From contig OZ237755.1 in the NCBI GenBank assembly GCA_965178125.1, positions 248,001-312,000 on the forward strand: 64,000 nt of DNA, in the 5' to 3' direction. Each line of letters opens with the position of its first letter. The first letter of the stretch is position 1. This stretch comes from Bilabrum cf. latius (Eukaryota). The translations under genes were made by a program, and so were the position numbers. Positions 1 through 64,000 of this stretch are shown here, one piece after another. A model generated the notes under the pieces. That model saw only the letters and a program-made list of their open reading frames with translations, was not told where the DNA came from and searched no databases.

Positions 1-1992
1 GCGCCGACGCTGGCTGCTGCGCGCGCTGCGCAGGCCGCGATGGTTGACCCGTTCGCGAGAAGGTCTGGGCCAGGGAACAAGGGTGGGTCGGGGTGGGGCC
101 TGCTTGGAGCGGGGAACAACGACCGGCAGGAGGAGAGTCTCTCGAGTGGCGCGGAGCTCCGGCAGCTCGCGACTCGGCTCGTCACAAGGCATCATGAGGG
201 CTCAGGGTACCAAGCGGTGGCGACCTCGAGCAGCACATTACCATCGGCGCCGGCACAAAGCCCGTTCCGCGCCCGTCCACAGAGCGGCCGCAGGGTCGGT
301 GCGAGCACGCAAGGCACAGGTAGCAAGAGCACAAACATGAGCATGCAACAGCGGGGGTCACCAGCTGGCCGGGCCGCAGGGCCGCGCTCCGTGGACACCG
401 GCGTGCCTCGTCCCCGATTGCAGCATCAGTACCGTGGATCCGTCAGCCACGGTGGAATGGGGGCCGCAGCTGGAGCACTGAACAGCGAGTCTCCCGGGGA
501 TGCATCGGCAGACATGTGGGGTGACCCCGGGGAGGCCGAGCTGGCAGAGCGGGTGTACGCGCGCGTGAAGGCGACCAAGGACGTGATCTGGGCTGCCAGC
601 GAGGCGGGCATGCAGCTGGATGGATCCACTGCGGCACAGAGCGCCCTGCTGGCAGCGGCCATCGAGGCGTCCTTGCGGACACCGCCGCACCACAGGGGGC
701 AAACGGGTGCGTCATCCGGAACGGGCGGCCGGGCGGGCGGGCCTGCTAGTCGTGGCGGAAGCAGCAGCAGGGCTGAGCGTGTACGGGGGAGGGCCAGCGG
801 GCCGTCCCCGTCTGGGGGTCGCCTGTAGAGGGGGGCTGTTGGGAGGGGGGCAGGGGCTGGGGGTGAAGTTCGTCGCGATCTGGGCGGACGGCATGACTAG
901 GGTGGTGCGTCGTCGCGGGAACGGGGAACCGGTGCAATCGATCGGTCAGGTGGGGGCGGGTTCATGGCCCGTTTGGCTGCTGGCCGGGCCCGTGGGCAGG
1001 CAAAGCTAGGGTCGAGGCCTGGGTCTGCCAAGAGCTAGAGCAAGGGACCAAGTGTCCCGGTTCATGTCCCTGGTTCGCGCAAAAGGGGCACGGGGAGGGA
1101 AAGGCGAGCAGGAGGAAACAGACCGATTTCGCTGGGGATCCAGGGAACAGGGGCCAGCGCAGCTCTGGCAGGTGGCTCACCTAGGGAACACGAGGCGGAT
1201 GAGAGCAGTCCCACTGCGGTGATGGCCCGGCGTGCGGGCGGTGGGGGCACTGGATCGGCGCTTAGACGAACTGGTTCAGGACGAGGATCTAGGCAGAGCC
1301 AGCAGCACCAGCAGGGGGACAGGAGCAGATAGCGGGTTGCAGCACCGGCTTGGCGGGACCGAGCACCTGCAGCTGGTGCCAGTCGGGACTCGCTGGGAAC
1401 TGGCTCTTCTTCACTTACCGGCGCTCGGGGGCCGCGACGCAGCCGACCCCCCAGCGGGGGCAGGACTCCAATTGGGGGCAGGTCGAGACCGCAGACTCCG
1501 CAAGGGGAGGACAGGGCGCTGCAGGCCGCGCTGCTGGCCAGCATCGGTGGTGGGGGTAGGAGCGGGGCTGTTGCACTCAGTCCTCCTACTCCTACTACTA
1601 GTGGCACCGCAACTGTTGCTGGCGTGGCGCGTGAGTACACCTCGTCTGCTGCAGCTGCACCCGGGGCAGATGCGGAAGATGCCATGCTGCAGGCCGCGCT
1701 GCGGGAATCGCTCGCTTCGGGTTAGGCAGGGAGCGACGGTGTGCCCGGGGGCGATGGGGGCGGCTAGAGGACTGCCGGTGGGGCTCAGCAGAATAGGGGC
1801 GCTAGAGAGGGAGGGAGGGGCCCTCCGGTGCGCACTGGCAGGGCTGGGGCGAGAACGGTTCCGTCGCAAAGAGGAGCAGGTGCACTGCATGTAGGCGCAG
1901 GCTCACGGTCGGGGCTGGGGCTGGGGCGAAGCGGCACGCTCGCAAGTCGCAGAGGACTTGGGAGAGGCTCCGGGAAAGAATCTAGCTCGTAA
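1..1992 (+). CDS. 3' part of a low-complexity protein with ubiquitin-interacting-motif (UIM)-like repeats; 5'-partial
   Basis: Frame open from base 1 to TAA 1990-1992 if TAG (826, 898, 1036, 1330, 1723, 1765) is read as Gln. UIM-like helices: SALLAAAIEASLR (~640-678), EDRALQAALLASIG (~1507-1548), EDAMLQAALRESLA (~1675-1716). Confidence 0.7.
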
Positions 1993-2146
1993 GGTTGTAT
2001 TTGCGTTGATTCGCTCTCCGGGATACCGGCTGCTTTGCTCTTCGTGCGCCAGATCTTCACTGTGCAGTGTTTGCGACCACGGCATTGCAGTGCAGCCAAC
2101 GGACACGATGCGACTCATTCTCAGGCGGCCTGAGCGGCCAACTGAC

Positions 2147-5100
2147 ATGCAATCTCTTCTGTCTAGCGCCGTACAGTCTGAACTGTAGAAGCGTGAACAT
2201 GAAAGGGAGCGTGATAGGATAGCGTAGCCAATTTTCCCGGGCCAGCAGCGCCTGTTTCACCGCGGCAACGACGGGGGCAAAGAGAAGACCGCCGACCCCG
2301 CAGAGTCGGTCGGAGCGGAAGCAAGCTCCTTGCTAAATGCCGCTAGATAGTCGTTTGTTGATCTTGTGAGTCCAGCGATACCAAATGCCGGGCGCGTTTC
2401 AGGCGATCCCCACATAGCCCAAATGCAGTCACCCGTACGACTTGCCTGGCCCCACCCCTTCTACATTTTGCTCGCAGATCGTGCATTTGGGAAAACCGGA
2501 GCTCGCTGAAGTGGAAGAGGCTGCTGCTGGTTCTTAGGCCGAAAAGGACGCCGCTGCAGTCGATAGGCGAATCGCGGCTTCCATGGGCTTAAGCACAGCA
2601 TCTGTGACCACAAACCTGGAATCGAAAGAGGCTGTCGCATCCAGCGACAGCAAAGCAGATCATACCGAGGGTAGTGGGTCTACCTTTCTGACGCAGCCCA
2701 GCGGCTCCGAAGCTCCGAAACCTCCGCTGCGGGGCCGTGCTACCGGCGGCGGCACCACGCCTCGCCGGCGCCATATGCACGCGGGCCTGTCAAAACTCCG
2801 GCCCGTCGGCAGCGACGAGGCCAGAGGCCGCCTGTAGCGCGCCGCCAAGTCCGCCGCCAAGGATCACGCAGTTGCAAATCGAACCCCTTGGCCGGAAGGG
2901 CAGCTCCAGCGCCTGGAGGAGTGGTTCGACGGCACGCTCAGTGGGATGGTGCGCCTTCGAGAAGCCATGTTCCACCGGGCCATGACGAGTACTATGCAGG
3001 AGGAGCACAAGCGGGTCACGGAGCAGTACGCGAAGAGGCTGGAGGACGCGCAGCGCAGGCGGGAGGCCTCCGAGAAGTTGGCCGACGCACTGCAGGCACG
3101 GCTGAGCAGGCGGTCGAGGGTGTGGGCGAGCGAGAGAAGCGATCACTACAGGCGGCTGCTGGCCATGCACGAAATACTCCGGCGGTCCGGGATCAAGTAC
3201 GACGAGGAAGCCGTGCAGAGGATCATGGATGGAGCCGCGGCTGCCGCTGCTGCCGCTGCCGAGGCTGAGAATGACGATGACGATGAGGGCTTGCTGAGCA
3301 CGCTGTCATCTGCGGGGGGAGATCGACACGCTGAAGGAGGCAGCGGGGGCGAAGACGGCAGGAGCAGCGGCCGGGACTCTGGGCAGGACGGTGCCTCTCG
3401 TCTGCAGGCCCTGGCCATGCGCCCCGCCGTCTCGCAGGAGGAGGCGGCGAGGAGACAGGCAGCGGGCCGGGAGATCGTGCGTCTCAAGCAGCTGCTGGCT
3501 GACACAAAGGAGAGGTGCTCGAGGCTGCAGGACGACGAGCGACAGCAGCAGCAGCGCGCCTCGGACGCTAGCGAGCGCGCCGAGGCCGCTAAGGTCCGTC
3601 TCAAGCAGCAGGACGTGGAGATTGACCAGCTCAGGACCAGGCTCAGGGAGGCGCAGGGGGCTCTCAAGGAGGCGCAGACTGCGCTGGAGATTCACGCGAT
3701 CAACGAAGAGTCCGAGGAGATGGACAGAAGGGAGAGAGAGAGCAAGATGAGGTCAAGGAGAGGCAGCGCAGCGACAGCGGCGGTTCGTGCGGCTGCTGCA
3801 GCGGCCAAGGCGGACGGCGGCAGCGGCGGCGGGGGCATGCCGCACCTGGACATCGGGGACGCCCGGTCTCCCAAGAGACCGCACCCGCCTCCAACTCCCG
3901 CGGCGGCTCGCGGGGCCCGATTAGCGCAGGGCGGTGCTGGGGGCACTGGCGGCATGGGCTCTGAGGCGATGCAGGCGGCCGGCATGAGCGCATGGATGTT
4001 CGGTGGCGTGGCCTGGGGCCGCATGCAGCGGGCGCAGGTGCAGGCCATGGTGCGTGACGGCTCCATCCAGTGGTAGTCGGCCGCGGAGGCGATCGCCACG
4101 CTGCTGGAAGAGGCCCCTCTGCGTCGGGCTGTCGCCGAGCAGATGCGCATGGACAGCGGGGCACTCCGGGCCAGCTCAGAGAGGAGCTCTGCCTCCGTGG
4201 AAGCGATGGCCGCGGGGAGGTATGGCATCAAGCAGCCCCAGGGCACGCCCAGGATGTCCGAGGCGGCCTCGAGTGCAGTGGCCAAGGGTAAGGGCCTCAA
4301 AGCGACGGGGAGCTTCCTGCTGCAAGGCGAGGAAGACGGGGCCGAGTCTGAGTACCAGGAGCTGCTGCATGCCTCTGAGGTGCTGCGAGGGCGGGTGCAC
4401 GCGCTGGAAAACGACCTGAGCGAGGCCCATGAAGTGCTGGCCAGAGAGAGGGAGGAGAGGCTGCAGGAGAAGAGACGGAGGGAGGCGCAGCTCGTCACCG
4501 AGGGCACGCAAACCACCACGGGAGACTTCGCGCAGGCTGGTATTCCCAAGGACAGCAGTAGGGACGCCCAGTATGAGGGGCCCGAGAGCTTGCAGGCGCA
4601 GCAGCGGGCAATGAAGAAGCGCAAGGCAAGAAAGGCCAAGGCGGCCAAAGACAGGAAGCGAAGGAGCTCGATGCTTGCGGCGCAGTCGTCGGGCGGCGTC
4701 GACTCGCAGGCAGCCGGTGGCATAGGGGACGGGTTGGACGGCGTGCACGACGGCGACTCGGCCGACGGCCGAGGCTCAGCTGCGGGTGGCAAGGCCGGAG
4801 CGACCTCGAAGGACGCGTCGGGCGGGACAACGACAGGGAACAAGAAGAGCGACGGGGACGACAACGACGACGATGCCGCGAGCCTCGCCTCGGAGGCTTC
4901 CCATGCCCTGTTGCACGACTTTCAGCAAGACGCCGAGACGCAAACCCCCGCGGGTTGGAGGGACGATCGAGACCCGCGCAAGACGAGGTCCCTCTTCGAC
5001 CTGGTCAAAGAGGCGCGCCGCAAGTCCAAGCTGCCAGGGGCTCATGGACTGGCCTCGTCCACCTCTCCGGGTGCGGGAGGGGCCGTCTCGCCCCCGGGCG

Positions 5101-8100
5101 GCAAGGGCAGCGGTTCCAAGCGGCGGGGCACTCGCCGGGGCACCTCGGTGGGTAAAGGCGCGGCAGCCATGACTGCAGACGCGATGGCATAGGCAGAGGA
5201 CGATCGGCGCATGCGGGCGGTGATGGAGGCGGAGGTAGGCCGGCTGCTGGCACTCAACAAAGAGCTAAGGGCGCGGACCGTGAAGCTTGCCAAAGCTGTG
5301 CAGCGGCTGGCGCTGCGCCAAGACGAGGGAGAGGAGGAGGGCATGGCGGGCGTGCTCAGTGGCTAGGACAGGCAGGCCGTGGACTTGGCGGGGCAGGTGG
5401 TGGAGGCCAGCGAAGCCAATGATGGCGGGGTGGGAGATGGGGATGGAGAGGGTGAAGGCAAGGAAGGTGAAGGCGGGCCTACTGGGGGCATGAGCGGGGC
5501 GGCGGCAGAGGTGCTGCTGGACGACATCCAGCGGCTACGGAGACGGGTAAACCAGCTCGCCACTACGCTCAAGCACGCGGGGCTGGCAGTTCCCCTGCCA
5601 GTGCGCCGGGGTTCATCCAAGAAGGAGGACGCGTAGGGGGATGGCAGCGACATTGAAGACTCGCAAGGGGCCAGCAAGCAGGCAGACAAGGGTGTATCGC
5701 GGCTGTCAGAGGACTCTCCCCAGGTAAGGATGCTGCGTGGGACAGTCAACCGGTTGCTTCTCCCTGCCCTGGGCCAGCTCCAGTCCATGCGGCACTCGGC
5801 CGACGGCAGTGGCGAAGACAGGGTCTCCACGCGGCCCGGCGGCTGGTTCGGCAGCACGGTGCAGAGAATCGAGGGGGCCCTCGGAAAGGCGCCCAAGCAA
5901 AGCCGGTTGGCCGGGCTGGGCAGCGAAGGGAAGGATTTCGCGATGTCTGCTTCGGCCGCTCTGACGGAGCTTGGGGAGGCACTGGCGGCCTGCGAGAGGG
6001 CGAGTGATGGTGCGAGACAGGCGCGGTGGAAGTGCCTGGTGCTGGCGCGGCTCGCTCTCTCGCAGGATGGTGAGTCTGGCGATGCGATGGACAGCGAGGA
6101 CGCTGAGACGGATGCTCAGCCGCACGCCCCGCCTCCCGCGGCAGCCATGCAAGTGCTCGAGCAGCTCGCCGCTGGGCTCACCAAGGGCAGGCAGAGAAAT
6201 GGCAGCGGTGCGGGCGATTCGGGGGCTGCCGGTGGTCTAATGACGATGAGCAAGCTGCCCGTGTTCGCGGTCGTTGCGGCTTCCATGCGCCGCAGCTTAG
6301 AAGCCAGCTCGGGTGCGGGCGTATCGGGCGGGAGACTGCGGGCGGCACTCGCCCACATGACCCGCATGGTGACCTCACGGGGCCGCAGCCTGGTCTAGAG
6401 GGCGGAAGCTCGTCTCCGCACCGCCGTGGTATCCATCCTTGCCGAGCCCAGCCTGTTCTCAGGGAGGTCCAGTGTGGGGAGGGGCGGGCGCCGCCGCAGC
6501 ACCGAGCTGGCCGGCGTGCCCTCAACGGATAGCCTGCGCGGAAGCGGCTCGGGTGGTCGAGGCGGGGGAACAGCGCGGAGACCCCTTCCCACCACAGCGG
6601 TACACCAATCCCAGCGCCGTCGCAGCACGGAACGACAGGGAGGTACAGTGCCCGGGCTGCCCATAGGGCAGGAGCAAGGGCAGGGTCGACAGGGCCGCAC
6701 CGCGCAGGCAATTGCCACCGCGCGCAGGGGCCCGCACCGGCTGGATGCCGAGTTCCTCGGGCAGCCGGGGGCCTCGGGTACTGCGGGCGGCGGGTGGCAG
6801 GGATCTCCAGGGGTGCAGCCGCCCGTCAGGCATGTACCATCGACCGAACGCAGCGTGTATCGGTCGGATCCTGCGGAGGCCGTGCGCAGGCAGCAGCGCA
6901 GGCAGAGCCTGGACGCAGACGGGAGGCCGAAAGAGCGGCCGACAGCAGTAACATTAGGGGCAGGCGGCGGGGGTTTTGGTGGTGCCGGTGGCAACGACTA
7001 TGGCTACAGCCCTCAGCAGCAGTACTCAGGATCTGGCAGCGCAGGCCGAAGGCACTCGCAAGATGGTAGCTACATCGACGCGTCTGGCCGCCGGCGATCC
7101 GACGCGCTAGGCACTTAGGGCGCACCCAGCGTTCCCGAGATGATGGACAGAGCGAGGCGCGAAGGGCGGAGGCAGAGCATGGGCGGGGGTTTCTCGGCTG
7201 CGGCCGCGAGGCAGAGGAGGCCAGGCTCCGAGAGGCCACGTGGAGGCGTCCCCGGCCGGTCGATGATCGCTGGGATTCCCGCAGGAAGCAGTCCCATGCG
7301 GCACCCTGCCCCCGTTGTGCGTGATGTGGCCACTGTGCAGCCTGGACAGCAGGGCCAGTACGCGGGAGCTCATCACTAGGGCACTCACGGTGAGTACCTT
7401 CCTTCCTAGTACGGCGAGGGCGGCCCACCGCCGGCAGGTGACAAGTACTATCAGCAACAGCATGGCCGTGAGCAGCAGTCCCACCAGCAGCACCAGCAGC
7501 AGCACTCGCGCAGCTCGCAGCACTCCCGCGGCAGCTCGCGATCTGGCAGTCGGGAGCGCTATCACGGGCATGGGCATGTGGCGCATGCGGGGCACGCAGC
7601 CGCCCCCTCTCGCTTGGCCCCTGCCCAAGGATCCAGCGGAGCGCACCACCTGGACGTGGGCCCCGGTGTGGCGGGCGGATCAGCCGTGCTCCCAGGCTCA
7701 GAGAACATCATCTATCAGGCTGCAGACGAGATCGACCTCCAGCGGAAGCAGCTGGCCGATGCAAACGCAAGGCGAGAGAGGGCACTCAGGCAGAGGCAGG
7801 AGGCGAGGAGGGCAAAGCTCAGGAGGACGCAGAGGAGGGTGTATGAGGCAAAGGGGACAGAGGCGCAGGCCAGGCTGCGAGGACGGACCCCGCCGGAGGA
7901 CCAGCGGCAGCACCCGCAGCAGTACGTCGTTGGTGCATCCGAAGCAACGCAGAAGAGACAAGAGTACCGGTCTCCCGGGAGGACGGGCCCAGGGTCAGCC
8001 CAGCACACGCAGAGCTTCTACTAGAGCAGGGACATGGGAGGGCCGCATGCCCCCGCTCGTATGGATCCTAGCCTCAGCTTCCGGTTGGACCCGCGGGAGG

Positions 8101-9218
8101 GGTACCAGGGCCACTCGCAGCTGGAGGCATCCACAGGCGTGGTCTACGACTCTGGACCTCAGGCTGGTAGGGTGCAGCAGCAGCAGCAGCAGCAGCGCAG
8201 GAGCCGCCAGGTGCTGGAGAGGGGCCGCGCCCCCCTTCGGAGCTCGGGTCACCTGCAGCACGCCGGTTCGCAGGCCTTCGTTTCTGGCCAGTCTTCCATG
8301 ACTCATCATTAGCAGCAGCACCAATAGGCTGGCGGCAACTCTCCCATGCATCGCGCCTCCACCTCGGTGCCCCGCGCTGGGATCAGCTCAGCGAGAGGGG
8401 AGCGCGGGCCTGGCGTGCTTCAGGCCGTGCGGGACGCAGACCAGAGGCACGAGCTGCAGGGGACCGTGCCTGGCTCAGGGGAACTGGCCGCGCCATCCTT
8501 CGTGGAGGCGTTTTCCTCTCTGGGCCATGACGTGGCGGGGGCACCCAGCAGGAGGGGCAGGGACGCAATCCCGTCCTCACCGCAGGCCGCTGCCGCGACG
8601 AGATCGAGGGCACGGGCACAGACACATGCACGCACTCGTCACACGGGTAAGGGCGCACTACGGGCCCCCGCAGGCGGCGGGGTGGACGACAGGTTCACCC
8701 CGATGGGGCTGAGCGGCGGCGGTCTCAGGACGGGCCCCGCAGGCGTGGGCCCGCTCCGGTCCCCCCGTCAGTCGGGGTCAGGTGCGGGCCGTGGAGGCAA
8801 GAGCAGCAGCTTGACGGCCAAGGATGCGCTGGGGGTGGGCACGGGCATTCAGAGCGGTGCCACTCCGCAGGGCGGTCGTGGTCGGCGGCTGCGGAGGGGG
8901 TCTCAGGAGACGGCGATGGAGTTCAGGCTCCGGCAGAGCCTAGAGAGGACGGAAGCCGAGGTGGTGCGCGACGGACGCAGGCGCATGTCTGGGCAGGCCA
9001 TGATCTCGGCCCAGTCGGCAGTGCAGGGGCAGGGACAGGGGACGGGCCGATCGGTGCATCGCGCGGGGGTGGCGGCAGTGAGCCGCACGAGCCCACAGGG
9101 GTCTATCTCCAGCCATGGCGGGGAGGTGGCTGGCTGGGGTCAGGAGGGTGCCCAGGGAGGCGGCATGGTGAACGGTGGTCGGTTGGATGGGGCATCGCAC
9201 GCCTCTGTGCCCCGATGA
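2147..9218 (+). CDS. Very large (~2,300 aa) coiled-coil / low-complexity protein of unknown function; join(2147..2365,2478..9218)
   Basis: ORF-track pieces starting at 2583, 2946, 4143, 5379, 5730, 6426, 7140, 7578, 8034 and 8346 share one frame and are separated only by TAG. Ends TGA 9216-9218. GTGAGT...CGCAG phase-0 intron at 2366-2477. 16 in-frame TAG. Start could also be ATG 2108. Confidence 0.75.
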
Positions 9219-9303
9219 ATGTGATTCCGAGTCCAACCAATGGCAAACCTAGGTTCAGCTGTGTTGCTTGCTCTTCATTGTTGTGCCTCATCCTACATCC
9301 GGA

Positions 9304-11892
9304 TCAGTCGTACGCCACAAAGGGCGCGTCGTCCGACGCGTAGCTCACGACCGGTGTCTGGTACGGCAGGGGCACTGGCACCACCAGGCACCCGTCGGCA
9401 GCCACGCCCGCCTTGACGACTGCCTGACACCCCGGATGGAAGGCAGGCAACATCCTCACGTACCTCGTGGCATCTCGCAACGTGGCAGCGTCTGCCACCC
9501 TATCGAGAGCCATCGACATGGAGGGGCTAGCGTCCTGGTCCAAGTCAACTTCAACGAACCCGGGTGGGATGGCTCTGCCCGCGCTGGTGCTGGTGCTGGT
9601 GCTAGACCCTCCGGGTGACGAGGACGATGACGAGGACGAGGACGATAAGGAGGACGATGAGGAGGAAGACGAACTCGAGGGTGCTGACGCATGCCCGCTT
9701 GCTGCTGATGAGTCAGCTTCTGCTGCTGCCCCTGCCCCTGCCTCTGCCCTTGGTGCTGGTGGGCCGTGCCTCTCGATGAGCAGTTTACCCCCTGGCTGCG
9801 GCAGCTGGCACGCGAGTGGTCTCAGCTGGCCCCGCTCCACCGACCCGACCGCTGCCCTTCTCCTCCTCACAAACACCCGAATCGCGTTAGCCATGGACGC
9901 AGGGGTCACCAGTACACTGGCCTCGAAGGACCTCGGCTTGGCGGTGGCAGTACCCCAAGCAGACCTGCTGATGTTGTGCGAGCCCATCGAGCAGTACCGG
10001 ACCTCGAGCAGCGGCGCTTCATCCTCCTCCTCCTCCTGCTTCTGCTTCGAACTACCTGAGGTGGAGCGAGAGCCCGGCAGAGAGGCAGCACTGGATGCGG
10101 CGAGTGCTGCACCCGCGCCCTCCGTGCCGATCTCACGGCCGGCCTCGTCCACTTTGACCACCTCTACGGGAGGCCCAGAGTTGGCGGCAGGCGTGCAGGC
10201 TGCTACGGACACCTGTCGGAAGCTGGCCATGGTCTTGATGTGCCCGGGCAGCCGTCCCAGTCCTGGGGTCGCAGCCCCCCAGCGATGCAGCAGGGGCCGC
10301 ATCTCCTGCACCTACCTCCGTCCTGAGGGCAGGGAGCTCCCGGTCACTTCATAGCCAGCATAGGACGCCGCCATCGTGGATCGGGTGGGCCAGACGATCG
10401 ACAGCGGCATGCCCGACGCTGCGTCCGAGCCATGGCCCCTCTTGGCACCGCCCGCTGACCTGCCCGCCCCCATGAACTTGCCCGCACTGGAGCTTTCCGA
10501 GCCGCTTGCAGATGATTTGTGATGGTCGCCCGCCGGTCCACCCTTCGACCCAATCCCAAACCCATCACCTTTGCGTCTCTCCCCATCCAGGATGCGCCTC
10601 GTTCTTTCGGCATGACCCCGAGGTGCCCCCAGCATGGCCAGCACGCTCTCAGGGGGATGTCCTTTGTTGCCCATGGAGGCGAATGAACTAAACTGCGCCA
10701 CGTACGTCACCGTGGCAGCGACCTCGAGCTCGGAAGGATCCCTACCCGACGGTGCTGGCGTCCCGGCGCTGCTCTTTGGCCTTGTCTCCGACCTTTCTGC
10801 GTTCCCTCGCGCCCGTTTCTACCCTATATGAAGGGCACCCCAAGGGGGGTGAGCGGCAGCAGGAGCAGCAGCAGGCAGCTTCTCAATGGCCGACCCGAGC
10901 GGTGAAGCAAATGGGCCGGGCCGTGGGTGAGCGACGCCCGCACTACCGCCGCTCAGATCCAGTTCGTCTGCTTGCAGGCAGGCGAGCAGCCGGCGGGCGC
11001 CCCACCTGCTCTGGGCGTGGCCGCTCGCCCTCACGTTGTCCACGGACCCCACGAAATGGGCGCTTGCCCCTGAGAAATCAACCCGGTCCAAAAGCGGCAG
11101 CACCCATTCCCCTGCTTTGACGGCCGTGGATGCCCTCCATCCTGCGTCTTGAGCCATGCGGTCTGCGTGCTGCCTGCGCTCCTGCTCGGTCCACCATGGC
11201 TAGGGAGCCCCGCAGGTGGCCCGCAGGTAGTCCCTGAGAGGGCCGCCGAAGATCTTCTCTCCGTAGGAGGTACGGGTCCTGGCGTCTGATTGGGCCCCCG
11301 ATTGAGATGCTGCTCTGCCGCGGGATGCGTGGGACGTGCCCATGCGTGCTCGTTTCTTTGGCGATTCAGTCTAGGCCTCTGCGCCTGCCGGCTCAGGAAA
11401 TATTGGAAAGTCTTGCCAAAACACTCCCTAGCACAAACACGTCAGGTCGCGGACTAGAAGATTTGCAGTTAGCACGATGATGCGAACCGTTCTGTCGTAC
11501 TTCAAGACAAAAAGCTTCGTGTGATGCTTCGCGTACGGTGATGTCAGCCGGATTCCCTCGCAGCTCCATTGGAACGACGCGCCGGGTGCCACACGCTCAA
11601 GAACGTGTGACATCTCTCGCGCGTACTCAGGAGGTAGCACCATGCTGACTTGTTCTAGAGAAGTTGAATGCTGGAAGACAGGGACCATTGCAATCTCAGG
11701 GTCAACCATAAAATTCACGACAAGCAGCGACCTGAGCGACTCGTTGGGTGGACTAGAGCAAAGCAGGTCTGATAATGACGCACTCATGCGTCCCTGTGCC
11801 GCGGGATCCCGGGGCTTATCTTTCAAAATCGCTGGATTCAACATCAGTTTGAAAGCGGAGGGCGCCTCTCGCACTCCTGTTGAATGGTCCAT
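9304..11892 (-). CDS. TDP1: Tyrosyl-DNA phosphodiesterase 1 (PLD superfamily)
   Basis: Motifs in correct order: NFMVD, HHTK, TANL..D....(TAG)GVFWQDFP, DFS, WG..RL, QFSS, IVWPT, HIKT, GSHNISRSAWG, SFEASVL, PLPY. One frame with TAG at 11428, 11371, 11200, 10819, 10312; ends TGA 9304. True start uncertain (possible acceptor near 11898). Confidence 0.92.
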
Positions 11893-40505: not shown

Positions 40506-40954
40506 GTGCATGCTATGATTTAGCACGAGCTTGCCGCTTTGAACCCTTGCACATCTTGTATTGTCATTAAACAGACGGGATTGTGAATATACACAGGCTA
40601 TCCGTCTTGTGATATATGTTGAAGGCTGTTTGTGTCACGTAGATTGGTGCCCAATGTAAATGTGAAATTCACACTGTGATCCATTGAGTGCCATTTCTGT
40701 GCAAGTCAAGGTCGTGCAATTCAATTTGGGTTCCGTGACCCAATCGCAGCATCCGGAGACTCATTGTCTCACTTTTGCGAAGAGTCCTCCACCCACCCAG
40801 GTAGACGCAGCCGGCGACTCTTCATATGTGGAACACTATGCTAGATCGCGTGCAGCTTGTTGCTGATGGAAGACCGACCTTTCGGGGTTGGCCCAGCCAT
40901 AGCAGCCTGCACGCGACCTGAGCATGATCGCATCACTCGGTCGCCAGTTGCTCT

Positions 40955-48930: not shown

Positions 48931-49071
48931 CATGCTCCATCGACGGATCGGATCCAGGCACAAGCACGCGATCACCCGCGGGTCTGATCTTCCAGTCCTG
49001 TGAATGTCCTCGCCGTTGACTTTGCCCAGGTTGAAGCCCTGAGGCGAGCACGAGCACGAGCACGCACTTGT

Positions 49072-51885: not shown

Positions 51886-52233
51886 GATGATGCGCTGTCA
51901 GTTCGTTAAGCGAAAACCGAGATTGGGTCAGTTGGCATCACTAGTCGGGGTTCCTAATTGTACTTCTCTTCATTCCCGCTTGCACAGCAAGAAATATGAG
52001 AAGTGATGGAACCGGCGGCGTCGGCGGTCGCAACCCGAACCATTTCAATTGTACATGGCGAAGAGCTAGTTTGCCCTACCTCTGATACAATTCAGACGAC
52101 AAGTCGAATAAACTACACACCTTTGATCACCGGTTGTCCGTGCTATAATTTGAGGGCATAGGCAAGAGTGACGACTCGGTCAACACCGTGCGGAACCAAC
52201 GGCTCGCAATTGTGAGGCCTTGTATACTCTCTA

Positions 52234-53688: not shown

Positions 53689-54090
53689 AGCAGACACACA
53701 AGTAGGGTTACGGCAGTTGCCGCGGCGTGCTAGGGTCGGTGTTTAGCACACGTGTCCTTGCCTGCATTGCTTTTTTGCTGAACACATTCACGTTGTACTG
53801 CACGATATTGCCTACTGCAAGTGCAATGCACGCTTGTGCTTGGAGTGCGTTGTATCCTGCCAGTAAACCAGTTCATCTAAATCATGAGGAAGCTGTATCG
53901 CGTGCATGTTGCATCATTAGAGCAATTTTATCACTGCTCAGCGCGGAGGACGGCTAAGATCTTTTCGAAACCTATGCGGACCGTAGGTGGAACCCCGCGC
54001 TTGCGTTTTGCGATTGTAGATCGCGCAGACAAACGAGCTTGTTCCAATGCGTCAGTGTCTCCAAACAAATTCATTTCTAATGATTTTATT

Positions 54091-56295
54091 ATGGGGAAGT
54101 CTCGCCCTTGGTGGGTCTCGGAATCTGGAGAGACTGACGATGACACCAAGATTCGAGCAGAGTACAATTACCAGCTGCGCCGTCTGTACTCCAAGAACTT
54201 GTTCTTGCGTGTTAAACTAGGGCTTCGTAATATAAGAGCAATGGACCGAGTGCTAGGCATGCCCCATCGAAGTTACGATGTCGTGCACGTCGCTGGTACG
54301 AACGGCAAGGGCTCGGTTGCACTCAAGGTGGCACAAGCTTGCCGAGTTGGATCAAACAAGACCAACTCACGACCATTAGTAACAGGACTCTTTACATCGC
54401 CCCATGTTGCGAGTTTTAGAGAGAGGGTGCGGGTCTAGGGCAAGCCATGGACTATGCAAGAGGCTACTGCATGCCTGCAAGCCGCCGAGGCAGCTGCAGA
54501 GCGTGCCGACGTGCCAGCGACATTCTTTGAATTGGTCACAATGGCTGCTCTTTTGGCCTTCAGGCGAGCCGGGTGTGATGTCGTGGTGCTAGAGTGCGGC
54601 CTTGGGGGCAGGCTGGACGCAACATCGGTGGTTCGCAACACGGCTGTTGCGAGCGTGGTCTCGGTTGGTCTTGACCACGTCGCGGTCCTGGGACCTACAC
54701 TCAGTGATGTGGCCAGAGAAAAAGCAGGCATATTCAGAAAGAACGCGCCCGATGCGGTTCATGTGCTAGGGGCCAAAGACGGTGATGCTGTTGATGCTAC
54801 CGCTGCCTAGCCAGCACGAGGCGGCAGCAGCGCGGCTCGTGAGCCAAAAGAAAATACAGTCTTGCCAGACTCCGATGGCGGAGTGCGTGCAGCAGTCATT
54901 GGGCCCGGTTCGTGCTCTGGCCTCCTACAGCAGCTAGCGAGGGATGCAGGCGTGGAGAGGATCCGGGTGGTGGGAGGAGGAGTTGGTGGACGTAGCAGCG
55001 ATATGCTGGAGGCTGCATCATCAGTGCATGGAGGCGCGAGCGGGGCAGACCACGCATCGGAAGAGGTAGAGGTTGAGTACGCCCCCGAAGATTACGACTA
55101 GATCAACTCCGAGGTTGCGCGGGCAATCGTTGAGGAACTTGGGGAGGTTACCAGCCTCAAGCTGCCGGCCGGCAAGGAGCTCGATCGAGCTCTCGAGGCT
55201 AGGCCGGCCGGCCGCTTCGAGGTGTTGAACCTACACGTAGATCAAGTCGAGCTGCTTGCATCCAACGCTGATGATACCGCCCCCGGACGCGGGCTACATG
55301 GCGGCTCGGCCTCCAAACCAACCAGCGTGCAGGTGATCATGGACTCGGCGCACAATCCCGTGGCTAGCCGCAGTCTAGTTAAGCTGCTCATGGCTCGATT
55401 CCCTGACACATTCCCGAGGCCACCTCAGCCTGCGCATGGTGATAATACCGTTGAAGTATCCGCGCGAACCCCTGCAACTCCTCGCCGACTGGTGCTTGGC
55501 TTGTCGAGCGACCGATCGCCTGAGGACATGCTGCGCGCGTGGAAGGGAGTTGTTCACCAGGACGAGCTCGTGTGCTGTGAAGCGGACTCCACTCGGGCAG
55601 CCAGTGCGGCGTCAATCGCAGCCAGCGCTCGGGAAGTACTCGGACGTCGATAGTCCAGTCCGGCTGGGGCCGGTCCAGTGGCTATACCGAGGCAAACCAG
55701 CTCTGTGAGCACGAGCCAAGGGGATAAAGAGTAGGTTGACAGGTAGATGCAGGCCCGAGAGGAGCATCTAAAGAGACTGCGAGAGGCGAGAGAGGCAGCT
55801 GGCCCTGGTCGAGCCCGGGGCAGGCATGAGTGGGAAGGTGCAGAGCCACTGCCAGCCAGTGACCCCAAGAGGGTCGCAGCGGGATTGTCGACCGACGGGA
55901 TCGGAGCGAGGTATAGAGAAGGACCAGGATCAGGAGCTTGGACTGGTAGCCATCAGGGAGGTGATACGGTGCAGGAATGGGAGGAAGCTGGTCGCAGAAT
56001 CGGAGGCTCCCGCGGTGCTAGCGGTCTCGTTCGGGCAGCAGGTAGCTCCGTGGCATCTGCAGTGGACAATGCAATCCGTGATGCCGTGGCGGAATCGACA
56101 TTAGAGGCCGAGAAACACGGTGTGCCGCAGCGTCCGCCCGTTGTGGTCATTGCAGGCAGCGTGTATCTGCTGGCAGAAGCACGCGGGGCCCTCCTCCGGC
56201 GAGCCCTAGATGCCAGGCCGTGGGAATCGCAGTATTAGACAGACGTGGCAGAGGCGCTCCTGGGGGAGGTGGAGCCTGATGACGTCGTCAAGTGA
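54091..56295 (+). CDS. folC: Dihydrofolate synthase / folylpolyglutamate synthase
   Basis: VHVAGTNGKGS, FTSPH...RERVRV(TAG)G, TFFE, LECGLGGRLDAT, GLDH..LG.T...AREKAGI, PAGRFE, DSAHNP, AGSVYL. 7 in-frame TAG; TGA 56293-56295. Frame is also open upstream to ATG 53884. Confidence 0.93.
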
Positions 56296-56410: not shown

Positions 56411-59400
56411 TCACTGCCTGGGCTTCAATCGAGGCGCCTTAAATCCGCCCTTGCCGAATCCAACGATGGGCCCCGCCATAGCCTTTGCGCGCATCCTGAT
56501 GTCCTGCTTGCCAGGCGCGAGCTTGATCCCTTGCGCCGACGTGCCAGCAGCGGACGAAGTGCCTTGGGCACTCGCGTCTGTCAGCACTCCCCCGCCGGCC
56601 TTGCGCAACCTCCGACGCTTTGCCGCGGGCTTGCCGTCCACGCCATCAGCCTTCGTACCGGCTGTGCCGGTGGCATCCACAGGGGGTGAGTTCTCAGAGC
56701 TGGCAGCAGACTAGGCAGACCCGGCTCCGGACGGAGCATCTCTTGCTGCTGCTGCCTCCGCCTCTGCCCTCTTGCGCTTGGAGCCAGGCGAAGGTTCAGT
56801 TGCACCACTGGAGGATGCAGCCAGCGCGCCACTCGCGAGGTCAGCCAGCTCGTCGGCGGTGAAGAGCACGGCAGGCTCGCTGCTCGATGAAGCTGAAGTG
56901 GCCGACTTTGCGGTCTTTTGGGAGGCTTTCTTATTGCCTTCTTGGACCGGCTTGGAGGTGGCTTTCTTGGCAGTTAGCTTGGCCGTTTTCTTGGATCCAG
57001 CCTGCGCCCGTCCTTCCTACTGCTGTTTTGCTCGCTTTCGCCTGGATACCTTGCCCTTGGCAGCTGATGGCGCGACTGCATCACTCTTGCCCGCGCTCCC
57101 AGATGCCGTTGAGCTGGCAGGCGTGGGGAGCTCATCGATGGCCCTCTCAACAGCGGATTTGGCAGACTTGGCGGTCGCAGACTTGGTCCCGCTCGATGCA
57201 GAAGATACCGTGCTGCTGCTGCTGGTGGCACGTTGCTGCTTTGCTTTTCCTTTAGCCTTCTTTCCCCGCGCTGCCTTGCGCTCCTGCCGCTTGAGCTCAG
57301 CACGGTACTGAAGCTCCGCCTCCCTCTCCCCCTCCTTCTCTTTCTTCGCCAGCTCGGCCTCTTCACTCACCTCCTCCACGGGCGCTGCATCACTGCCGGT
57401 GCTGGCGCCCGATGCCTCTGGGTGCCACGATGCATCGGACGATGCGCTTCCGCGCCGGCCGTGCGCGTCCACCGCCCGTCGCGGAAGGGACGGACCAGAG
57501 CTCGCTTTCGACTCGCTGTCGTGCGAATCTGCCCTCGCCGGCCGTCCCCTCGACGGCTTGCTTGCCTTTGGTGCTGCTGCTTTCTGATCGGCTGAGCGAC
57601 CAGTCCGTCCACGCTTGCCTCCCGCTCCCGTCACCTTGCCCCGTCCTCGTCCTTTCGCCCCACGGTCCTCATCCTCACCCCTTTGGCCCATGGCCACCGC
57701 GTCGTTCACGCCCGCAGCCCTGTAGACCTGCTTGATCCCTCCAAAGGCGCGCTCCATCCCTTGCACCTCGCCCGCGTGCCTCGCTCTGGCCTCTGCCAGC
57801 GCCACCGCGAGGTCAGCCCGCTCCTTTTCCTCCCGTCGCACTGCCTCCTCGCGGTCCCGCGCGTACTTTTCCAGCTCGGCCACGGCCTCCTTGGCCTCGG
57901 TGTTGATCTGCTCCCGCTCGGTGCGCTCCCGGCCTGCCTGGTCCAGAGCTGCGATGGCCATGCGCCGCACCGCTCGCAGCTGCGCCGACACTAGCCGCAG
58001 CGCGTGCTTGGCCGCGGAGTGCTCCGAGGCCATCATGCGCTGCTCGGCCGCCCGCAGCAGCCGCGAGGACCTCTCCCTCATCCATCTAGCTCCGATGAGG
58101 GCAGCGTCCGTCCGGTCCCTTGAGGCATAGTACGCATCGATGGCCCGTTTCCTTTCTGCTGCTACCTTTTCCTGCTCGTGGGCCTCGTGCAGCTGCTGCA
58201 TGTCCTGGCGCAGCGCCTCCTGCGCCTCCCTCGCCCTCTTCTGCTCCAGGTCATGCGTCCTGACGGCCTCGTCCATCTGTTCGACCGCTTCTGCGTGCTT
58301 CTGCCGCGCGAACTTGGCGTCATCAAGGGCGCGCTGCAGGCGACCTAGGAGCTCCGGCTCGGCTTGCTCCTTGGTTGTCTCCAGCTCGGCCCGCAGATCT
58401 TCCATGATTTGCTCCTGCTGGGCCTCTGCGGCTGCCCGCCCTCTTGCCTCGCCCGCTGCTGCCGCCTTCTCGGCGTTCACGGAGGCCTACCTGATCTCGA
58501 GAAGCAACTTGTCGATGCGAGCCTGCGCCTGCTCCTGCTCGGCCTTGAGCGCCTCCTGCGCCTGAGTCCTGGCTTGTGCCGCCGCGGACTCCCTGGCCTA
58601 GTCCAGCTCCATGGCGCTCGGGCCGGCGAGGGCCGGCGAGGTAAGGATACCCGCATCAGCCACGGTGCTGGCAGGCTTGATAGCCGGCGAGGAGGACCCA
58701 GCCGATGATGATGCAGCGACTGCAGCGGGTGACTTGCGCGCAGCCGCCACGCCCACGTCCTGCGCGAGCGCCACTTGTCTCTGCTTGGACTTCCCAGGTG
58801 GTGTCGCGGCGACGATGCCGGCCCTGGCCGCGTCGATGGCTGCGATCAGCTCTTGTTCCTTGCCGGCGCTCTAGTGGATCAAATCGTCAATACGGGCCTA
58901 AAGCCGAGCATTCTCGGCCGTGGCAGCCTCCTTGGCCTGCGGGGAGCGGCAGCAAGGGCAAGAGGATGCGAATGTAGGCGTGCATCTCGAATCAGAAGCA
59001 ATTGAAGCAGCAGGCTGGAAGCATAACGGCACATTGAGAGCTGCCTATCATTTGACATGTACACCGCCTAATCTCACGGCTCTGGCAGCCTGCAGCTCCA
59101 TCGTCTTGCTGTCCACCGCGCACCTGAGCTCTTCGAGTTCTCGAGCACGGCGCGCCTCCTCGCCAGCGTCCGGCACGCCCTCCAGGTGAGAGGTTACTGA
59201 GTTTCGGATGGCGCGAGCCCTCTCGGCGTACATGAGGGATGTGAGAGTCTGCCTGTAGTGCGCTTGCGTGCACCGGGCGTGCACGAGCATCACGGTGCGG
59301 GCCGATCCACCGAGCGAATCCCTGCGAGAAAGTGTGCGTAGGAATGGAATGGATTGCACCGAGCCATAGCGGTGTCTACTGCGGTCTGCCGGGCAACGAG

Positions 59401-61159
59401 GGCCAACTGCACTGATGTAACAGGACGCAGCGTCTAGCTCAATATGCACACGAGATAGCTCACCGAAGCAGGTGCGTCAGCTTCGAGTTGCGGTAGGGCA
59501 CCACCCACGCATCCCTGCTCTTGGTGGCGAGCGCGGAGAGAACGTCAGCTGCGAGAGAGAGCGATCAGAAAACGGGACTGGACGGGGCTGGACACGAAAC
59601 ATGCAACCCGCAACGATCAACGGCAAGCGGATAAGACATGAGGCACATGCAAGGAAGTGAGCTCCCGCTCATGCCTGCCTCTACAGTCTCACCCAGCACG
59701 GTGAGGCTCAGGTTGATGGCCTGGGCCTCGCCCATCAGACGGTCGTCTTCCAGGGCACCGCTCATGGACAGTCGCTCGGAGCCCGCGAGATCCACCACGA
59801 ACAGTCTCCCATGCCGGCGGGGGTTGCGCTTCCGGGCCGAGGCCGGGCCGGAGGAGGATGCGGAGCTCGGTGCCGCGCCGGCGTCGCTGCCGTCCACGCG
59901 CTCCCCAACGACGTCCAGCGCGATGATTGCGTGCGACCTCGATGAATGTTCGTTGAGGTTCGTGCACCCTGTGGCCCTGTTCTTGTTCCCTCTGGCGATA
60001 AGCGCCAGCGCCTCCTCGGCTGTCTCGACCGCCTGCCTCAGCGTGGCGCTGCCCTCGAGATACACGCCCTGGGAGCGAGACTCGCGGATCGAGATCTTCG
60101 GGCCTTTCGAGGCCTAGCCAAGGTCCATGGACACGCCAGCAGCGGCAGCAGAGGCAGCCACAAACGCGGGCGAGTCGGCCAGCAGGTCCTTGAAGCTGTT
60201 CTTGTACAGCTCCACGTACGAGAGCTCCACGCTGTAGCGCATGTCAGGGCGCTCGGAAGCGCGCGCGAACACTGTCTGGAGGGTGCGCTGCAGGACGCCG
60301 GATCCTGCTCCTGGGAGTGCGGCCGACATTCCAGCGGACTGATGGCCAGCGGCTGCCTGCGCCTGCAGGACCCTGGGGTCGTCAGGCGACAGAGCCGGGT
60401 CGGTGCCTGAACAACCCATGATCGTGTGCGTCTTGCCGGACCCAGTGGACCCATACGCGAGCACGGTGGCGTTGTATCCTGCCAGCACGGACTCAACGAG
60501 CGGACGCACTTGCGAAAATACATCCAGCTGCGTCGCTTTTGGACCAAACACTCGATCGAACTGGAACGAGCGCGGCCTCATGCGCGACTGCAACAACTAG
60601 ATAAGACAAAATGAGGCGAGCCACGAAAGGAAGTACGAGGTGGCACAAAGACCGGCCCTTTCGCGTGAATGCCGAAGCAGTTCAAAGTGGATGGTGGCTT
60701 CTCACTGGAGTCTACATGGGAGCGGGAGTTCCGGCAGCCCTTGATCGCGCTGATCGTGGCGTGGCAGCTTGAGATCGAGATCTGCGGAGATTGCACGAGC
60801 AGCTGTCACAATGTATTTTTTAAAAATTCAGGGCGGGGCGTACGGACAGCGTTGTCCGTAAATCGTGACGAATCTCACGAAAATGTCAATCTCCTGCTGC
60901 CGGGGGTGCCGGGAGTCCGTGCCCCTCCAAGGCGCTGGCGACGACTGGGAGTAGCTGCGGCGGTCTTTCGCCTAGCACTCCCTGGAGCAAGCAGCCTGGA
61001 ATCTGCAGATAGGTCATCCACCGAGGGCGGGTTCAGTTGCACAGTGCAGCCATCATTGGCAGGCTCAAGCAGACTTGATTCTCTCAGCTCTACCTCCGTC
61101 TCGGAGAGTGGTCGAAGTCTAAGTAAAACTTGTATGTTCTGGGCCGATGTTGTGCTCAT
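56411..61159 (-). CDS. N-terminal-motor kinesin with coiled-coil stalk and basic tail; complement(join(56411..58936,59078..59321,59464..59548,59693..60587,60706..60781,60879..61159))
   Basis: VLLRLRP, FQFDRVF, GYNATVLAYGSTGSGKT, SYVELY, NEHSSRSH, VDLAGSER, INLSL, PYRNSKLTHLL, DSLGG. Five GTGAG...GCAG introns with consistent phases. 8 in-frame TAG; ends TGA. Confidence 0.93.
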
Positions 61160-61317
61160 TTTACGAGCAGGACTCGGCTAGTATACCCTCAAGTCTCGAG
61201 GCCACCAACGGTTCCGAATTTTTAAATCGTTTTTATCACCTTATAATTTATTTTCGCTCCGAATCTTGAGACCCAGCGTCAAGCAAAGCGTGGAATAGCC
61301 CTGATTTCGTTGGAAAT

Positions 61318-62655
61318 ATGATTGCCTTGAAGATGGTTATCCCGCATACACTATTATCAATAGCGTATGCTGCGATTGCAATTTGTGTTCCGACATTTTC
61401 TGTCGGACCATCGCCGTGGTACGCGTTATTAGCTGTCTGGCCCTCACTTTCTCATTTGTCGTTCTCTGCGCTGTATTTGGCGCCATAGGCCACTGTTGGG
61501 TGGATCGGGAAAGATATAGATTCTGGTTCCATGGCAATATTGCCAACGTTGTGGTTCTTTCCACCTCATTTGGTGCAGTGGCTTACTTGGGCAATTCGAC
61601 ACACAACATGCATACCGTTGAAAGGAGAGCATCCATACGACAGAGTTGGACCAAGTGGGCGAATATATGTAGGGCGATATCCAATGAGGTACCCTTCAGA
61701 GTTTCCAGTTGATGACTGCAGCTCTGTGGTAGACTTGACGGCTGAGTTCCCGGCGCGAGATGCGGTCATCAACGGCAGGACGTACCTGTGCCTGCCTTCG
61801 CTGGATTGCGAAATGCCCCCTCGGGACGAGCTACTGAAACTGGCCAGGCGCGTCGCTGACATGCGTGGGAAAACGTACGTCCACTGCGCCAATGGCCACG
61901 GGAGGAGCGCATGCCTGGCCGCGCTGGTGCTCATGATTCGAGGAGAAGCGACCGGTTGGAGGGACGCCTTCGTAATCATGAGAAAAACCAGGCCGCAGGT
62001 GAACATTTAGTCTCCCCAGGAGAACATGCTGCAGAGCATAGAGGACGAGCTGGCCAGGAAGAGGCTCCTGCCCGCCAGGGAGGCCGCGATGACGAGGGCT
62101 GTGCGCGGCGCCGACGCAGTTCCGCATGGCGAAGACGCCATCGAGCTTTCTTCGCATGTCGCGGCCGGAGCCGCTGCCCCGAGGGATGGAAGCACAGCAG
62201 AGAGGGGGGGGTCGGCGAAGCAGGGACAAGGCCCCCAGACGCCACCCCAGGTGCCCCCGCTGAGGGGTCGCTCCAAGGGATCCAACGCAGACTCGGAATC
62301 AGATGCGGGAGGCGCTGCGAGTCCCGGGTTGCGCACACTCCTGCCGCACAGTATGCCGGGGGTCGATCGGGGCCCGGCGGCTGCGGCATCGGGTGGCTTG
62401 CCTGTCGCTACTAGCGGTGCGGGTCGGTCGCGCGGAGGCTCACTCACAGTGGTTCCGGCAGTGCGCCTGGACAAAGCGGGCCAACGTGGTGCCGGTGGTA
62501 GGGTTACTCACCACGGCGATGTTACGGTGCAGGTGTCTGCGAGGAGGGGAGACACCAGCAACGGAGGCGGAGGGGGAGCGGGGAGCAAAGGGGGCGAGGC
62601 GGGCATCGTGCGGCGGCTATCGCCCAGGTCCCACGCCTCCCCGAGAGAAAATTGA
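61318..62655 (+). CDS. Membrane-anchored dual-specificity protein phosphatase (YnbD C-terminal-like)
   Basis: Hydrophobic N-terminus, IYVGRYP, VVDLTAEF, YVHCANGHGRS (CX5R), RPQV. TAG at 61486 and 62008; ends TGA. Confidence 0.85.
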
Positions 62656-62837
62656 GAAAAAATGAATTCGCAACTTCGCTGTAGACCCTATCAGAACCAC
62701 GGGGGGATTATTTGCGCGTTGAACAGCTAAAGCCGAAGTGCATATAAGCAAGCAACAAGCAGCAATCCTCCTGAGCCAAATCCAGTGGCAGCCAGACTCT
62801 CCCGCCTTAGGAGGTCCAGACGGGGTGGAGCGGCAAA

Positions 62838-64000
62838 TCACGCCAGCTGCACCTGCAAGACTGATCCTGTTGGCACGGAGGCCGGAGCAGCCAGCCCAAC
62901 GAGCAGCATGCCGCTGGCCTGCTTCGTGGTTGCGACAGCGACCGACTTGCCGTCGAGGGTCACCATCGCGCTCGCGCTGCTCGTCTCGATAACGAGGTTC
63001 TGGACGGTGACTGAACCGTACGATACCTTCCAGCTCACAGTACCACCCGCCCCTCTTCCACTGACCGCGGGGCCCTGGGTACTCGCTCCACACCCGCACG
63101 AGGGAGGGCGACCAGCTGCATCCGCGGCGGGCGGTTGCATGCTCGCCTGTCCCCAGCCGCTGTCCGTGGTGAACCAGCCGCAGAAGCTTCCGTCAGCAGC
63201 AAGCACCCGCGGAGCGATGGTCATCTGCAGCGCCGGCTTGTTCCAGCGGATGCCGGCCGCCAGTTCGAGCAGTGCAAAGCCGCTCATGGGTCTGGAGTAG
63301 TACTGCCCGCACTCGATCTCGTTCACCACGCTGCGGCGGGTGCCATCCTGCCTCGCACGCGTGTCAAGCAGCATCTGCTTCCACACCGCGTCGGTCCCCG
63401 GGGTGCCACAGGCGAGAGCAAGGCCGGCCATCGGGTACTCGATGCCGCTCCAGGCGGCCTCTGAAGTGTACAGCAGCGGCTTCGGCGGGGGCTTAGAGTC
63501 GGGCCAGGTGGCAATGTACAGCCCGCTGTCGCGCTCGTCGTAGAACTTGCGAGGGTGTTGGTCACTAGGATTGAATCCATCGCGATGATTTGCCCCGAAC
63601 ACGCCTGCCACCGCCGTGGCCACATGATCGGCTGGCAGCAAGTCACCCAGATCCAGGATGTACGCCCACCACTGGCCCAGCAGCTGGTCCGTGAACGCAC
63701 CATCCGTGAGCTCGTTCACGTGGTGCTCCGGGTCCGTGACCTGGGTGTACCACTTGCCGTTGGTAAAGCAGAGAGTGTCTAGAGTTTTGGAGCCTAGCTG
63801 GAAGCGCGCACCGTACTTTGAGGCAGAGGCCGAGTCCCCAGCCAGCTTGGCCATTTCCTCGCAGGCTCGCAGGCCGCACAGATACAGTGCGCTCATGAGC
63901 GTGTTCACGCCGTACAGGGGGCAGTCATACGTAGAGGGTTGCGGCCCTCGAACCACGCCGTCTCCCTTCAGGTCAAGCTCGGTCATCCACCTCTCGATGA
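62838..64000 (-). CDS. GBA2: GH116 non-lysosomal glucosylceramidase-like glycosidase, C-terminal part (5'-partial)
   Basis: DG......TYD, LYL.GLRA..EMA, NGKWY, DQLLGQW, YTSE.WSGIEY, NEIECGQYYSRPMS, WG. Frame runs off the window end; ends TGA. Confidence 0.85.
   Translation of the reverse strand, partial: IERWMTELDLKGDGVVRGPQPSTYDCPLYGVNTLMSALYLCGLRACEEMAKLAGDSASASKYGARFQLGSKTLDTLCFTNGKWYTQVTDPEHHVNELTDGAFTDQLLGQWWAYILDLGDLLPADHVATAVAGVFGANHRDGFNPSDQHPRKFYDERDSGLYIATWPDSKPPPKPLLYTSEAAWSGIEYPMAGLALACGTPGTDAVWKQMLLDTRARQDGTRRSVVNEIECGQYYSRPMSGFALLELAAGIRWNKPALQMTIAPRVLAADGSFCGWFTTDSGWGQASMQPPAADAAGRPPSCGCGASTQGPAVSGRGAGGTVSWKVSYGSVTVQNLVIETSSASAMVTLDGKSVAVATTKQASGMLLVGLAAPASVPTGSVLQVQLA

Follow-up and report, generated by a model that had tools for sequence, protein, structure and literature searches.

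Only a handful of eukaryotic lineages are known to have altered their nuclear genetic code. Those in which UAG alone has changed its meaning and UAA still terminates translation are rarer still, and two articles name a rhizarian, Iotanema, Scotinosphaera and some ciliates (PMC5304391, PMC11687900). In Iotanema spirale (Fornicata) UAG is read as glutamine (Gln), UAA and UGA are stops, and UAA is the primary stop (PMC5304391). Among ciliates a UAG-only reassignment to Gln is given for Protocruzia tuzeti and two phyllopharyngean lineages, the phyllopharyngean and Protocruzia UAG-only reassignments being listed as Gln or Leu, and in an oligohymenophorean ciliate UAG encodes Glu together with UAA encoding Lys (PMC11687900). 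Further UAG-only cases are the rhizarian exLh with Leu (PMC5304391) and Scotinosphaera with Ser (PMC11687900). Both UAR codons stand for Gln (NCBI table 6) in some ulvophytes, Hexamita, Streblomastix and Amoeboaphelidium protococcarum (PMC11687900, PMC5304391, PMC6299283), and TAG alone stands for Gln (NCBI table 15) in crAss-like and other phages (PMC9523058). Here we analyze the meaning of the triplet TAG in 64,000 nucleotides (nt) of Bilabrum cf. latius, namely positions 248,001 to 312,000 of the forward strand of contig OZ237755.1 (GCA_965178125.1); this whole stretch is called the window. The best explanation, to which we assign a probability of about 0.92, is that the window belongs to the nuclear genome of an aerobic eukaryote, rich in guanine and cytosine (GC), in which UAG encodes Gln and translation ends at UGA (mostly) and at UAA, which is the code of NCBI table 15.

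To investigate the use of TAG we took frames from stop to stop with TAG as a sense codon, instead of full gene models. This gave 16 frames of at least 276 codons on both strands, with 17,040 codons altogether. The longest of them comprise 2421, 2282, 2149, 1690 and 1507 codons, whereas the longest frame under the other readings has 790 codons (standard code), 790 codons (TAA as sense) or 834 codons (TGA as sense). Frames of this kind are bounded by TAA or TGA by construction, and the meaningful control is the number of stop triplets in the two off-frames of the same DNA. Within the 16 frames TAG occurs 111 times, TAA 0 times and TGA 0 times. At offset 1 we counted 272 TGA, 105 TAG and 31 TAA, and at offset 2 293 TGA, 118 TAG and 50 TAA, leading to off-frame totals of 565 TGA, 223 TAG and 81 TAA. 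All three triplets are thus common off frame, and only TAG is found in the coding frame, at approximately its background frequency. TAG is tolerated in frame throughout genuine genes, and TAA and TGA are not.

The triplet is present in 15 out of the 16 frames, the exception being a fragment of a GH116 gene, and 102 out of the 111 occurrences lie past the first in-frame ATG. At least two are intronic (residue 8 of the PPIP5K frame and residue 59 of the SCO1 frame; Table 1), and about 100 are truly coding. Conserved sequence continues without interruption across TAG when the PPIP5K frame is compared with human PPIP5K2, and likewise in Tdp1 (LTCLC-TAG-GVFWQDF); an exon of SCO1 carries two adjacent TAG (RE-TAG-TAG-KKK). 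A sequence-only reading of the window had proposed that TAG is a sense codon, that more than 100 occurrences by hand count are in frame, and that conserved motifs cross them, and all three proposals agree with our counts, frame lengths and alignments. It had also put the number of affected genes at 18 out of 20. The substance of that statement stands, and the exact figure was not reproduced, the frames being defined differently here.

A relative provides an independent view of the same trait. A public protein fragment that matches Tdp1 (P0247) terminates exactly at a TAG site of the window. An alignment of the Tdp1 C-terminus was used to scan metagenome contigs of the Joint Genome Institute, and one contig was returned (L001; 8858 nt, 58% GC). 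With TAG as sense it contains frames of 1647 and 890 codons, compared to at most 327 codons under the standard code, and no comparable frame lengths were obtained from it with TAA or TGA as sense. These frames are homologous to the 2282-codon frame of the window (P0001) and to Tdp1, and they hold 25 and 4 in-frame TAG, respectively, and 0 TAA. The arrangement is syntenic, the Tdp1 gene and the P0001-like gene being convergent both in L001 (1068-8858) and in the window (2370-11940). In the alignments of the two gene pairs 380 out of 820 and 858 out of 1583 residues are identical (approximately 46-54%). Since the trait is also present in a relative at this distance in two rapidly evolving proteins, the change of the code is probably older than this species and clade-wide.

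The region 34000-53999 was compared with the contigs of four public runs, none of which is on record as RNA; assembled contigs such as those of X1 and X5 drop rare variants. The same TAG bases are found in contigs of runs from three studies (X1, X5/X6, X7). A single contig of run X1 spans 34000-49119 including introns and spacers with 0 differences. Run X5, which stems from a different study than X1, contributes a 6549-nt contig equal to 34113-40546 and a 7348-nt contig equal to 40714-48005. Neither of them has a gap or a deviating letter, and together they carry 36 in-frame TAG unchanged. The former has 115 extra letters upstream of 34113, where the PPIP5K intron lies; exon 1 of this gene ends with the conserved residues ...GVCAMDKK. 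The X5 contigs look like transcripts, to judge by their length, which is that of genes, and by the joint at the kinase gene, where the intron is missing (Table 1). The green-algal polyadenylation signal TGTAA was not seen near two contig ends.

The 16 frames end with TGA in 14 cases and with TAA in 2 cases. The ratio of CAA to CAG is 156:541 in the window and 48:87 in L001, and if TAA were used in the same manner as TAG approximately 32 in-frame TAA would be expected in the window and approximately 16 in L001, compared to 0 and 0 observed. In the alignment both P0001 homologues have their last residue at one position (...ASVPR), followed by TGA in the window and by TAA in L001. In addition, the X5 contig over PPIP5K stops at 40546, which is 41 nt past the TAA, without reaching the next in-frame TGA. 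The common end of the P0001 homologues and the end of the PPIP5K contig indicate that TAA and TGA are both stops, and that the code corresponds to table 15 and not to table 6.

Two alternatives concern the stop codons. The first, which we consider improbable, although it keeps more weight than any other alternative, is a dual meaning of TAG, with Gln inside genes and a context-dependent stop at some gene ends, similar to Condylostoma and Blastocrithidia, in which other codons are concerned. Nothing speaks directly for it; frames defined with TAG as sense would, however, hide a TAG stop with a short open tail behind it, and FolC has a TAG 18 codons ahead of its TGA. Three C-termini could be checked, those of Tdp1 and P0001 by comparison with L001 and that of PPIP5K by the contig end, and all three close with TGA or TAA, and UGA and UAA serve as dedicated stops. 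The second alternative is a code of the table-6 type, in which TAA also encodes Gln and is just rare due to the high GC content. The 14 frames ending in TGA would fit such a code, and reading TAA as sense extends some frames (2149 to 2176, 1690 to 1730, 663 to 710 and 2421 to 3033 codons). The longest of these joins passes, however, through the intron and the 5' leader of the kinase gene. Together with the missing in-frame TAA (0 compared to 111 TAG in the window, 0 compared to 29 in L001), the ...ASVPR termini and the position at which the PPIP5K contig ends, this makes the table-6 type very unlikely.

The amino acid encoded by TAG was approached by the alignments between the window and L001. 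Columns with TAG in either genome were kept if at least 9 out of 16 flanking residues were identical and no gap was present. The partner of TAG is Q in 11 columns (CAG or CAA), S in one, R in one and E in one, and two further columns pair TAG with TAG. The 775 ordinary columns kept by this filter provided an empirical substitution table, under which Gln explains the partners best by 25.3 natural-log units, with R at -25.3, S at -30.3 and E at -36.1 relative to it. The margin of Gln amounts to 21.5 under a looser filter and to 22.7 under a stricter one. While ordinary Gln columns have Q as partner in 63% of the cases, TAG does so in 11 out of 14, and it therefore behaves as a Gln codon. A strongly conserved position gives the same answer: at the TAG of Tdp1 frame residue 171 the column contains Q 128 times, N 12 times, D three times and G once (144 non-gap rows among the 150 best matches of an exhaustive search against representative sequences), human Tdp1 has Q and L001 has CAG. 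For a TAG of PPIP5K within the motif DGIV-x-RD two of the top-scoring matches (P0127 and P0128) carry Q, P0128 being the most identical PPIP5K match overall (55%). Judged by these alignments TAG is decoded as glutamine. The sequence-only reading had arrived at Gln for TAG and at UAA and UGA as remaining stops; the Tdp1 column, the L001 partners under three filters, the absence of in-frame TAA and TGA from the 16 frames and the homologous C-termini support both.

Several observations weigh against this interpretation. Apart from Tdp1 residue 171 the alignable TAGs sit at variable or non-Q columns. In FolC the column contains N 71, D 26 and G 15 times (120 rows), at Tdp1 residue 543 it contains N 71 and T 18 times with AAC in L001, and in PPIP5K the column of the DGIV-x-RD site contains M 104, Q 2 and S 2 times, with E in the human protein; the TAGs of the gene resembling tubulin chaperone E (TBCE) face H, K, T and F in human. 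As far as aligned residues can tell, these variable-column TAGs (FolC, Tdp1 residue 543, PPIP5K, TBCE) do not discriminate the amino acid. Ser makes up 14.6% and Gln 3.7% of the residues adjacent to TAG, which is closer to the neighbors of Ser codons (14.8% and 3.2%) than to those of CAG and CAA (7.9% and 7.4%). A classifier based on neighboring residues ranks L, A, R and H at the top for TAG, with S at -8.5 and Q at -13.8. We discount this result because the classifier is unreliable in its own cross-validation, in which the true residue is put first in 36 out of 60 cases for Q (approximately 60%). The Gln residues that TAG encodes may be kept out of poly-Q runs, with most of them located in disordered regions rich in Ser, Ala and Gly. 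A further point is that the type of run X5 was guessed as 'RNA? (probably DNA)', so that we only infer its contigs to be transcripts. Finally, the tRNA scan and the Rfam scan of the window returned 0 matches each, the tRNA scan of L001 also yielded no tRNA gene, and the window contains no gene for eRF1.

The composition of the neighbors, the two Asn-dominated columns and the single S, R and E partners could be taken to mean that TAG is a sense codon for another residue, for instance Ser (Scotinosphaera), Leu (the rhizarian exLh), Glu (a ciliate) or Asn. The log-likelihoods given above for R, S and E argue against this, Leu is outside the eight best residues and never a partner of TAG, and the column of Tdp1 residue 171 contains 0 Ser, 0 Leu and 0 Glu in 144 rows. 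We regard another residue as just as unlikely as a code of the table-6 type. That the TAGs remain untranslated, as assembly errors, stops of pseudogenes, RNA-edited sites or spliced-out stops, has a negligible chance, as we found no point in its support and TAG alone, never TAA or TGA, interrupts 17,040 codons, the same bases recur in the contigs of three studies, L001 keeps its 890- and 1647-codon frames with TAG at two homologous sites, and gene-sized, intron-less X5 contigs with 36 unchanged TAG, one of them skipping an intron, argue against editing or splicing-out.

UAG as Gln with UAA and UGA as stops shares features with several of the described codes. As in Iotanema only UAG is reassigned, namely to Gln, and UAA is kept as a stop, so that UAG and UAA have become independent of each other in meaning. 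In Iotanema, however, UAA is the primary stop, while TGA prevails here, and Iotanema is an anaerobic flagellate, whereas SCO1 is encoded in the window. SCO1 is an assembly factor of cytochrome oxidase, and fornicates are not known to possess the cytochrome-oxidase pathway. With the UAG-only ciliates the window has in common the codon, the amino acid and a UAA without new meaning. It differs from them by 62% GC and a contiguous stretch of 64 kb with at least 16 genes on both strands, in which single exons exceed 2000 codons and introns measure 94 and 213 nt. A long multi-gene, GC-rich stretch with single exons of more than 2000 codons is unlike ciliate macronuclear DNA. SCO1, the GC content and the multi-gene stretch with its very long exons therefore argue against Iotanema and against typical ciliate macronuclei. 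Some of the table-6 lineages are algae or parasites of algae, but TAA is also Gln there and a stop here. The rhizarian exLh and Scotinosphaera are non-ciliate eukaryotes with UAG reassigned alone, but to Leu and Ser, both of which are rejected here. The crAss-like phages use the same table, but theirs are phage genomes in bacteria, and the window is a eukaryotic nuclear locus with introns of the spliceosomal type.

By analogy to other lineages with UAG as Gln (PMC5304391), a tRNA-Gln with the anticodon CUA would decode UAG, and an eRF1 without recognition of UAG would have kept the recognition of UAA and UGA.

The position of the organism was approached by the matches of individual genes. The named matches of FolC are oomycetes, diatoms, Ectocarpus and myxobacteria with 47-50% identity, the list of PPIP5K matches is dominated by land plants, and the search with the TBCE-like protein gave a single match, a Mesostigma record. 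In a FastTree phylogeny of 68 FolC rows (61 top matches and 6 named bacterial rows, out of 120 listed) the query has a branch of 2.12 and lies in an open polytomy. The SCO1 piece, translated with the standard code and compared with protein clusters, hit generic SCO1 clusters only, without lineage signal. No ciliate is found among the named best matches of FolC and PPIP5K, which is weak evidence. Because the best identity among the retrieved PPIP5K matches is 55%, the data suggest a poorly sampled lineage. In open-access papers and preprints we found no report of UAG as Gln in a GC-rich eukaryote that is neither a ciliate nor a fornicate. The kind of code is thus already known, and this instance is plausibly independent and undescribed. 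For an independent origin of the UAG-only change to Gln, in a lineage that is neither ciliate nor fornicate and has no described code change, we see about even odds. Given such an origin, the change would date back far enough for the environmental relative from which L001 derives to share it.

Each new independent UAG-only case can serve to test whether eRF1 and tRNA wobble constrain UAA and UAG mechanistically to remain coupled. Most known cases of code change are AT-rich, and a GC-rich genome with TGA as the main stop bears on the role of base composition in codon capture. On the practical side, gene prediction with the standard code fragments the genes of this organism, public protein fragments of the relative end exactly at TAG sites (as P0247 does), and annotation and phylogenomics of the assembly need table 15. 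If the origin is independent, a GC-rich organism would be at hand for studying how eRF1 separates the recognition of UAG from that of UAA, and the organism, being present in several public run sets, is perhaps in culture.

The window has a GC content of about 62% (58-68%), and genes of the type found in eukaryotic nuclei are present on both strands (Table 1). Pfam matches at E<=0.001 were obtained for 12 out of the 16 long frames, and in 9 cases the match exceeds the curated cut-off. The remaining 4 frames match nothing, and five additional scanned frames had no Pfam match at E<=0.001.

Table 1. Frames and introns of the 64-kb window, with the number of TAG in each and the evidence for its assignment.
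Feature	Positions	Strand	TAG	End	Evidence and remarks
Low-complexity protein frame, 663 codons	1-1992	+	6	TAA	open at 5' end; no Pfam match
P0001, 2282-codon frame	2370-9218	+	14	TGA	no Pfam match; syntenic homologue in L001
Tdp1 (tyrosyl-DNA phosphodiesterase)	9304-11940	-	5	TGA	PF06087, E=1.7e-36
Ubiquitin-domain protein	12803-15313	+	2 (1 past first ATG)	TGA	PF00240, E=1.1e-24
SCO1/SenC exons	17089-17919	+	4		PF02630, E=3.8e-45; PDB SCO1, E=1.7e-49
SCO1 putative intron, 102 nt, GT..AG	17207-17308	+	1		sequence alone
Leucine-rich-repeat protein, 1690 codons	19592-24664	+	8	TGA	PF13516, E=6.8e-13
1507-codon frame	25914-30437	+	9	TGA	no family match
PPIP5K intron, 94 nt, GTGAGT..TTGCAG	34019-34112	+			sequence; X5 contig aligns from 34113
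PPIP5K/VIP1 main exon	34056-40505	+	12 (1 intronic)	TAA	PF18086 and PF00328
Protein kinase with very long low-complexity inserts	40955-48220	-	25 past first ATG	TGA	PF00069, E=1.3e-27
Kinase-gene intron, 213 nt, GTAAGA..TGCAG	48007-48219	-			X5 contig joins 48005 to 48219; X1 contig retains the skipped part
Glycosyltransferase-61-like frame, 941 codons	49072-51897	-	3	TGA	PF04577, E=1.8e-5 (under curated cut-off)
Tubulin-chaperone-E-like leucine-rich-repeat protein	52216-53688	+	5	TGA	PF12799; PDB TBCE, E=2.2e-5
FolC-type dihydrofolate/folylpolyglutamate synthase	53881-56295	+	7	TGA	PDB FolC, E=2.9e-32
Coiled-coil Lys/Ala-rich frame	56411-59047	-	7 (4 past first ATG)	TGA	
Kinesin motor exon	59565-60701	-	2	TGA	PF00225, E=6.3e-60
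Dual-specificity-phosphatase-like frame	61270-62655	+	2	TGA	PF00782, E=2.1e-7 (under cut-off)
GH116 (GBA2-like) fragment, 386 codons	62838-63998	-	0		PF04685, E=3e-19; leaves the window edge

The PPIP5K/VIP1 protein combines an inositol pyrophosphate kinase with a histidine phosphatase domain and matches human PPIP5K2 with E=1e-91. The FolC-type synthase has 6888 homologues at E<=1e-10; with approximately 800 codons and several insertions it is longer than most of them, which have 400-600.

A very long insert of low complexity seems to divide the kinase domain. Two stretches of the frame match Pfam, the best at residues 750-845, and at residues of about 2150-2185 a motif can be recognized by eye that resembles the last kinase subdomain. 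The first ATG of the main exon (48004-48002) is followed at once by TAG (ATG TAG GAG GAA ATG), so that either Gln is the second residue or initiation takes place at the next ATG. Around 47105-47143 a stretch of approximately 40 nt is rich in GAG and GAC, and many unrelated contigs, from all four runs, match only there and then diverge (depth up to 107). The stretch is a short acidic repeat of low complexity that many genes have in common.

A 424-codon frame without TAA or TGA (48224-49495, minus strand) lies immediately upstream of the kinase frame and in register with it, with one TAA between both; it contains 4 TAG and has no Pfam match. It overlaps the 3' part of the glycosyltransferase-61-like frame in a different frame, and its length is unlikely to arise by chance. 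Between 49000 and 51450 the public contigs contain a second, diverged copy, e.g. with 34 differences in 366 nt at 49300-49665, and joined contig forms, present both in X5 and in the DNA-like run X1, omit 92 nt (49776 to 49869) and 316 nt (50917 to 51234). The diverged copy and the joined forms point to paralogues or alleles of the glycosyltransferase-61-like region and not to introns.

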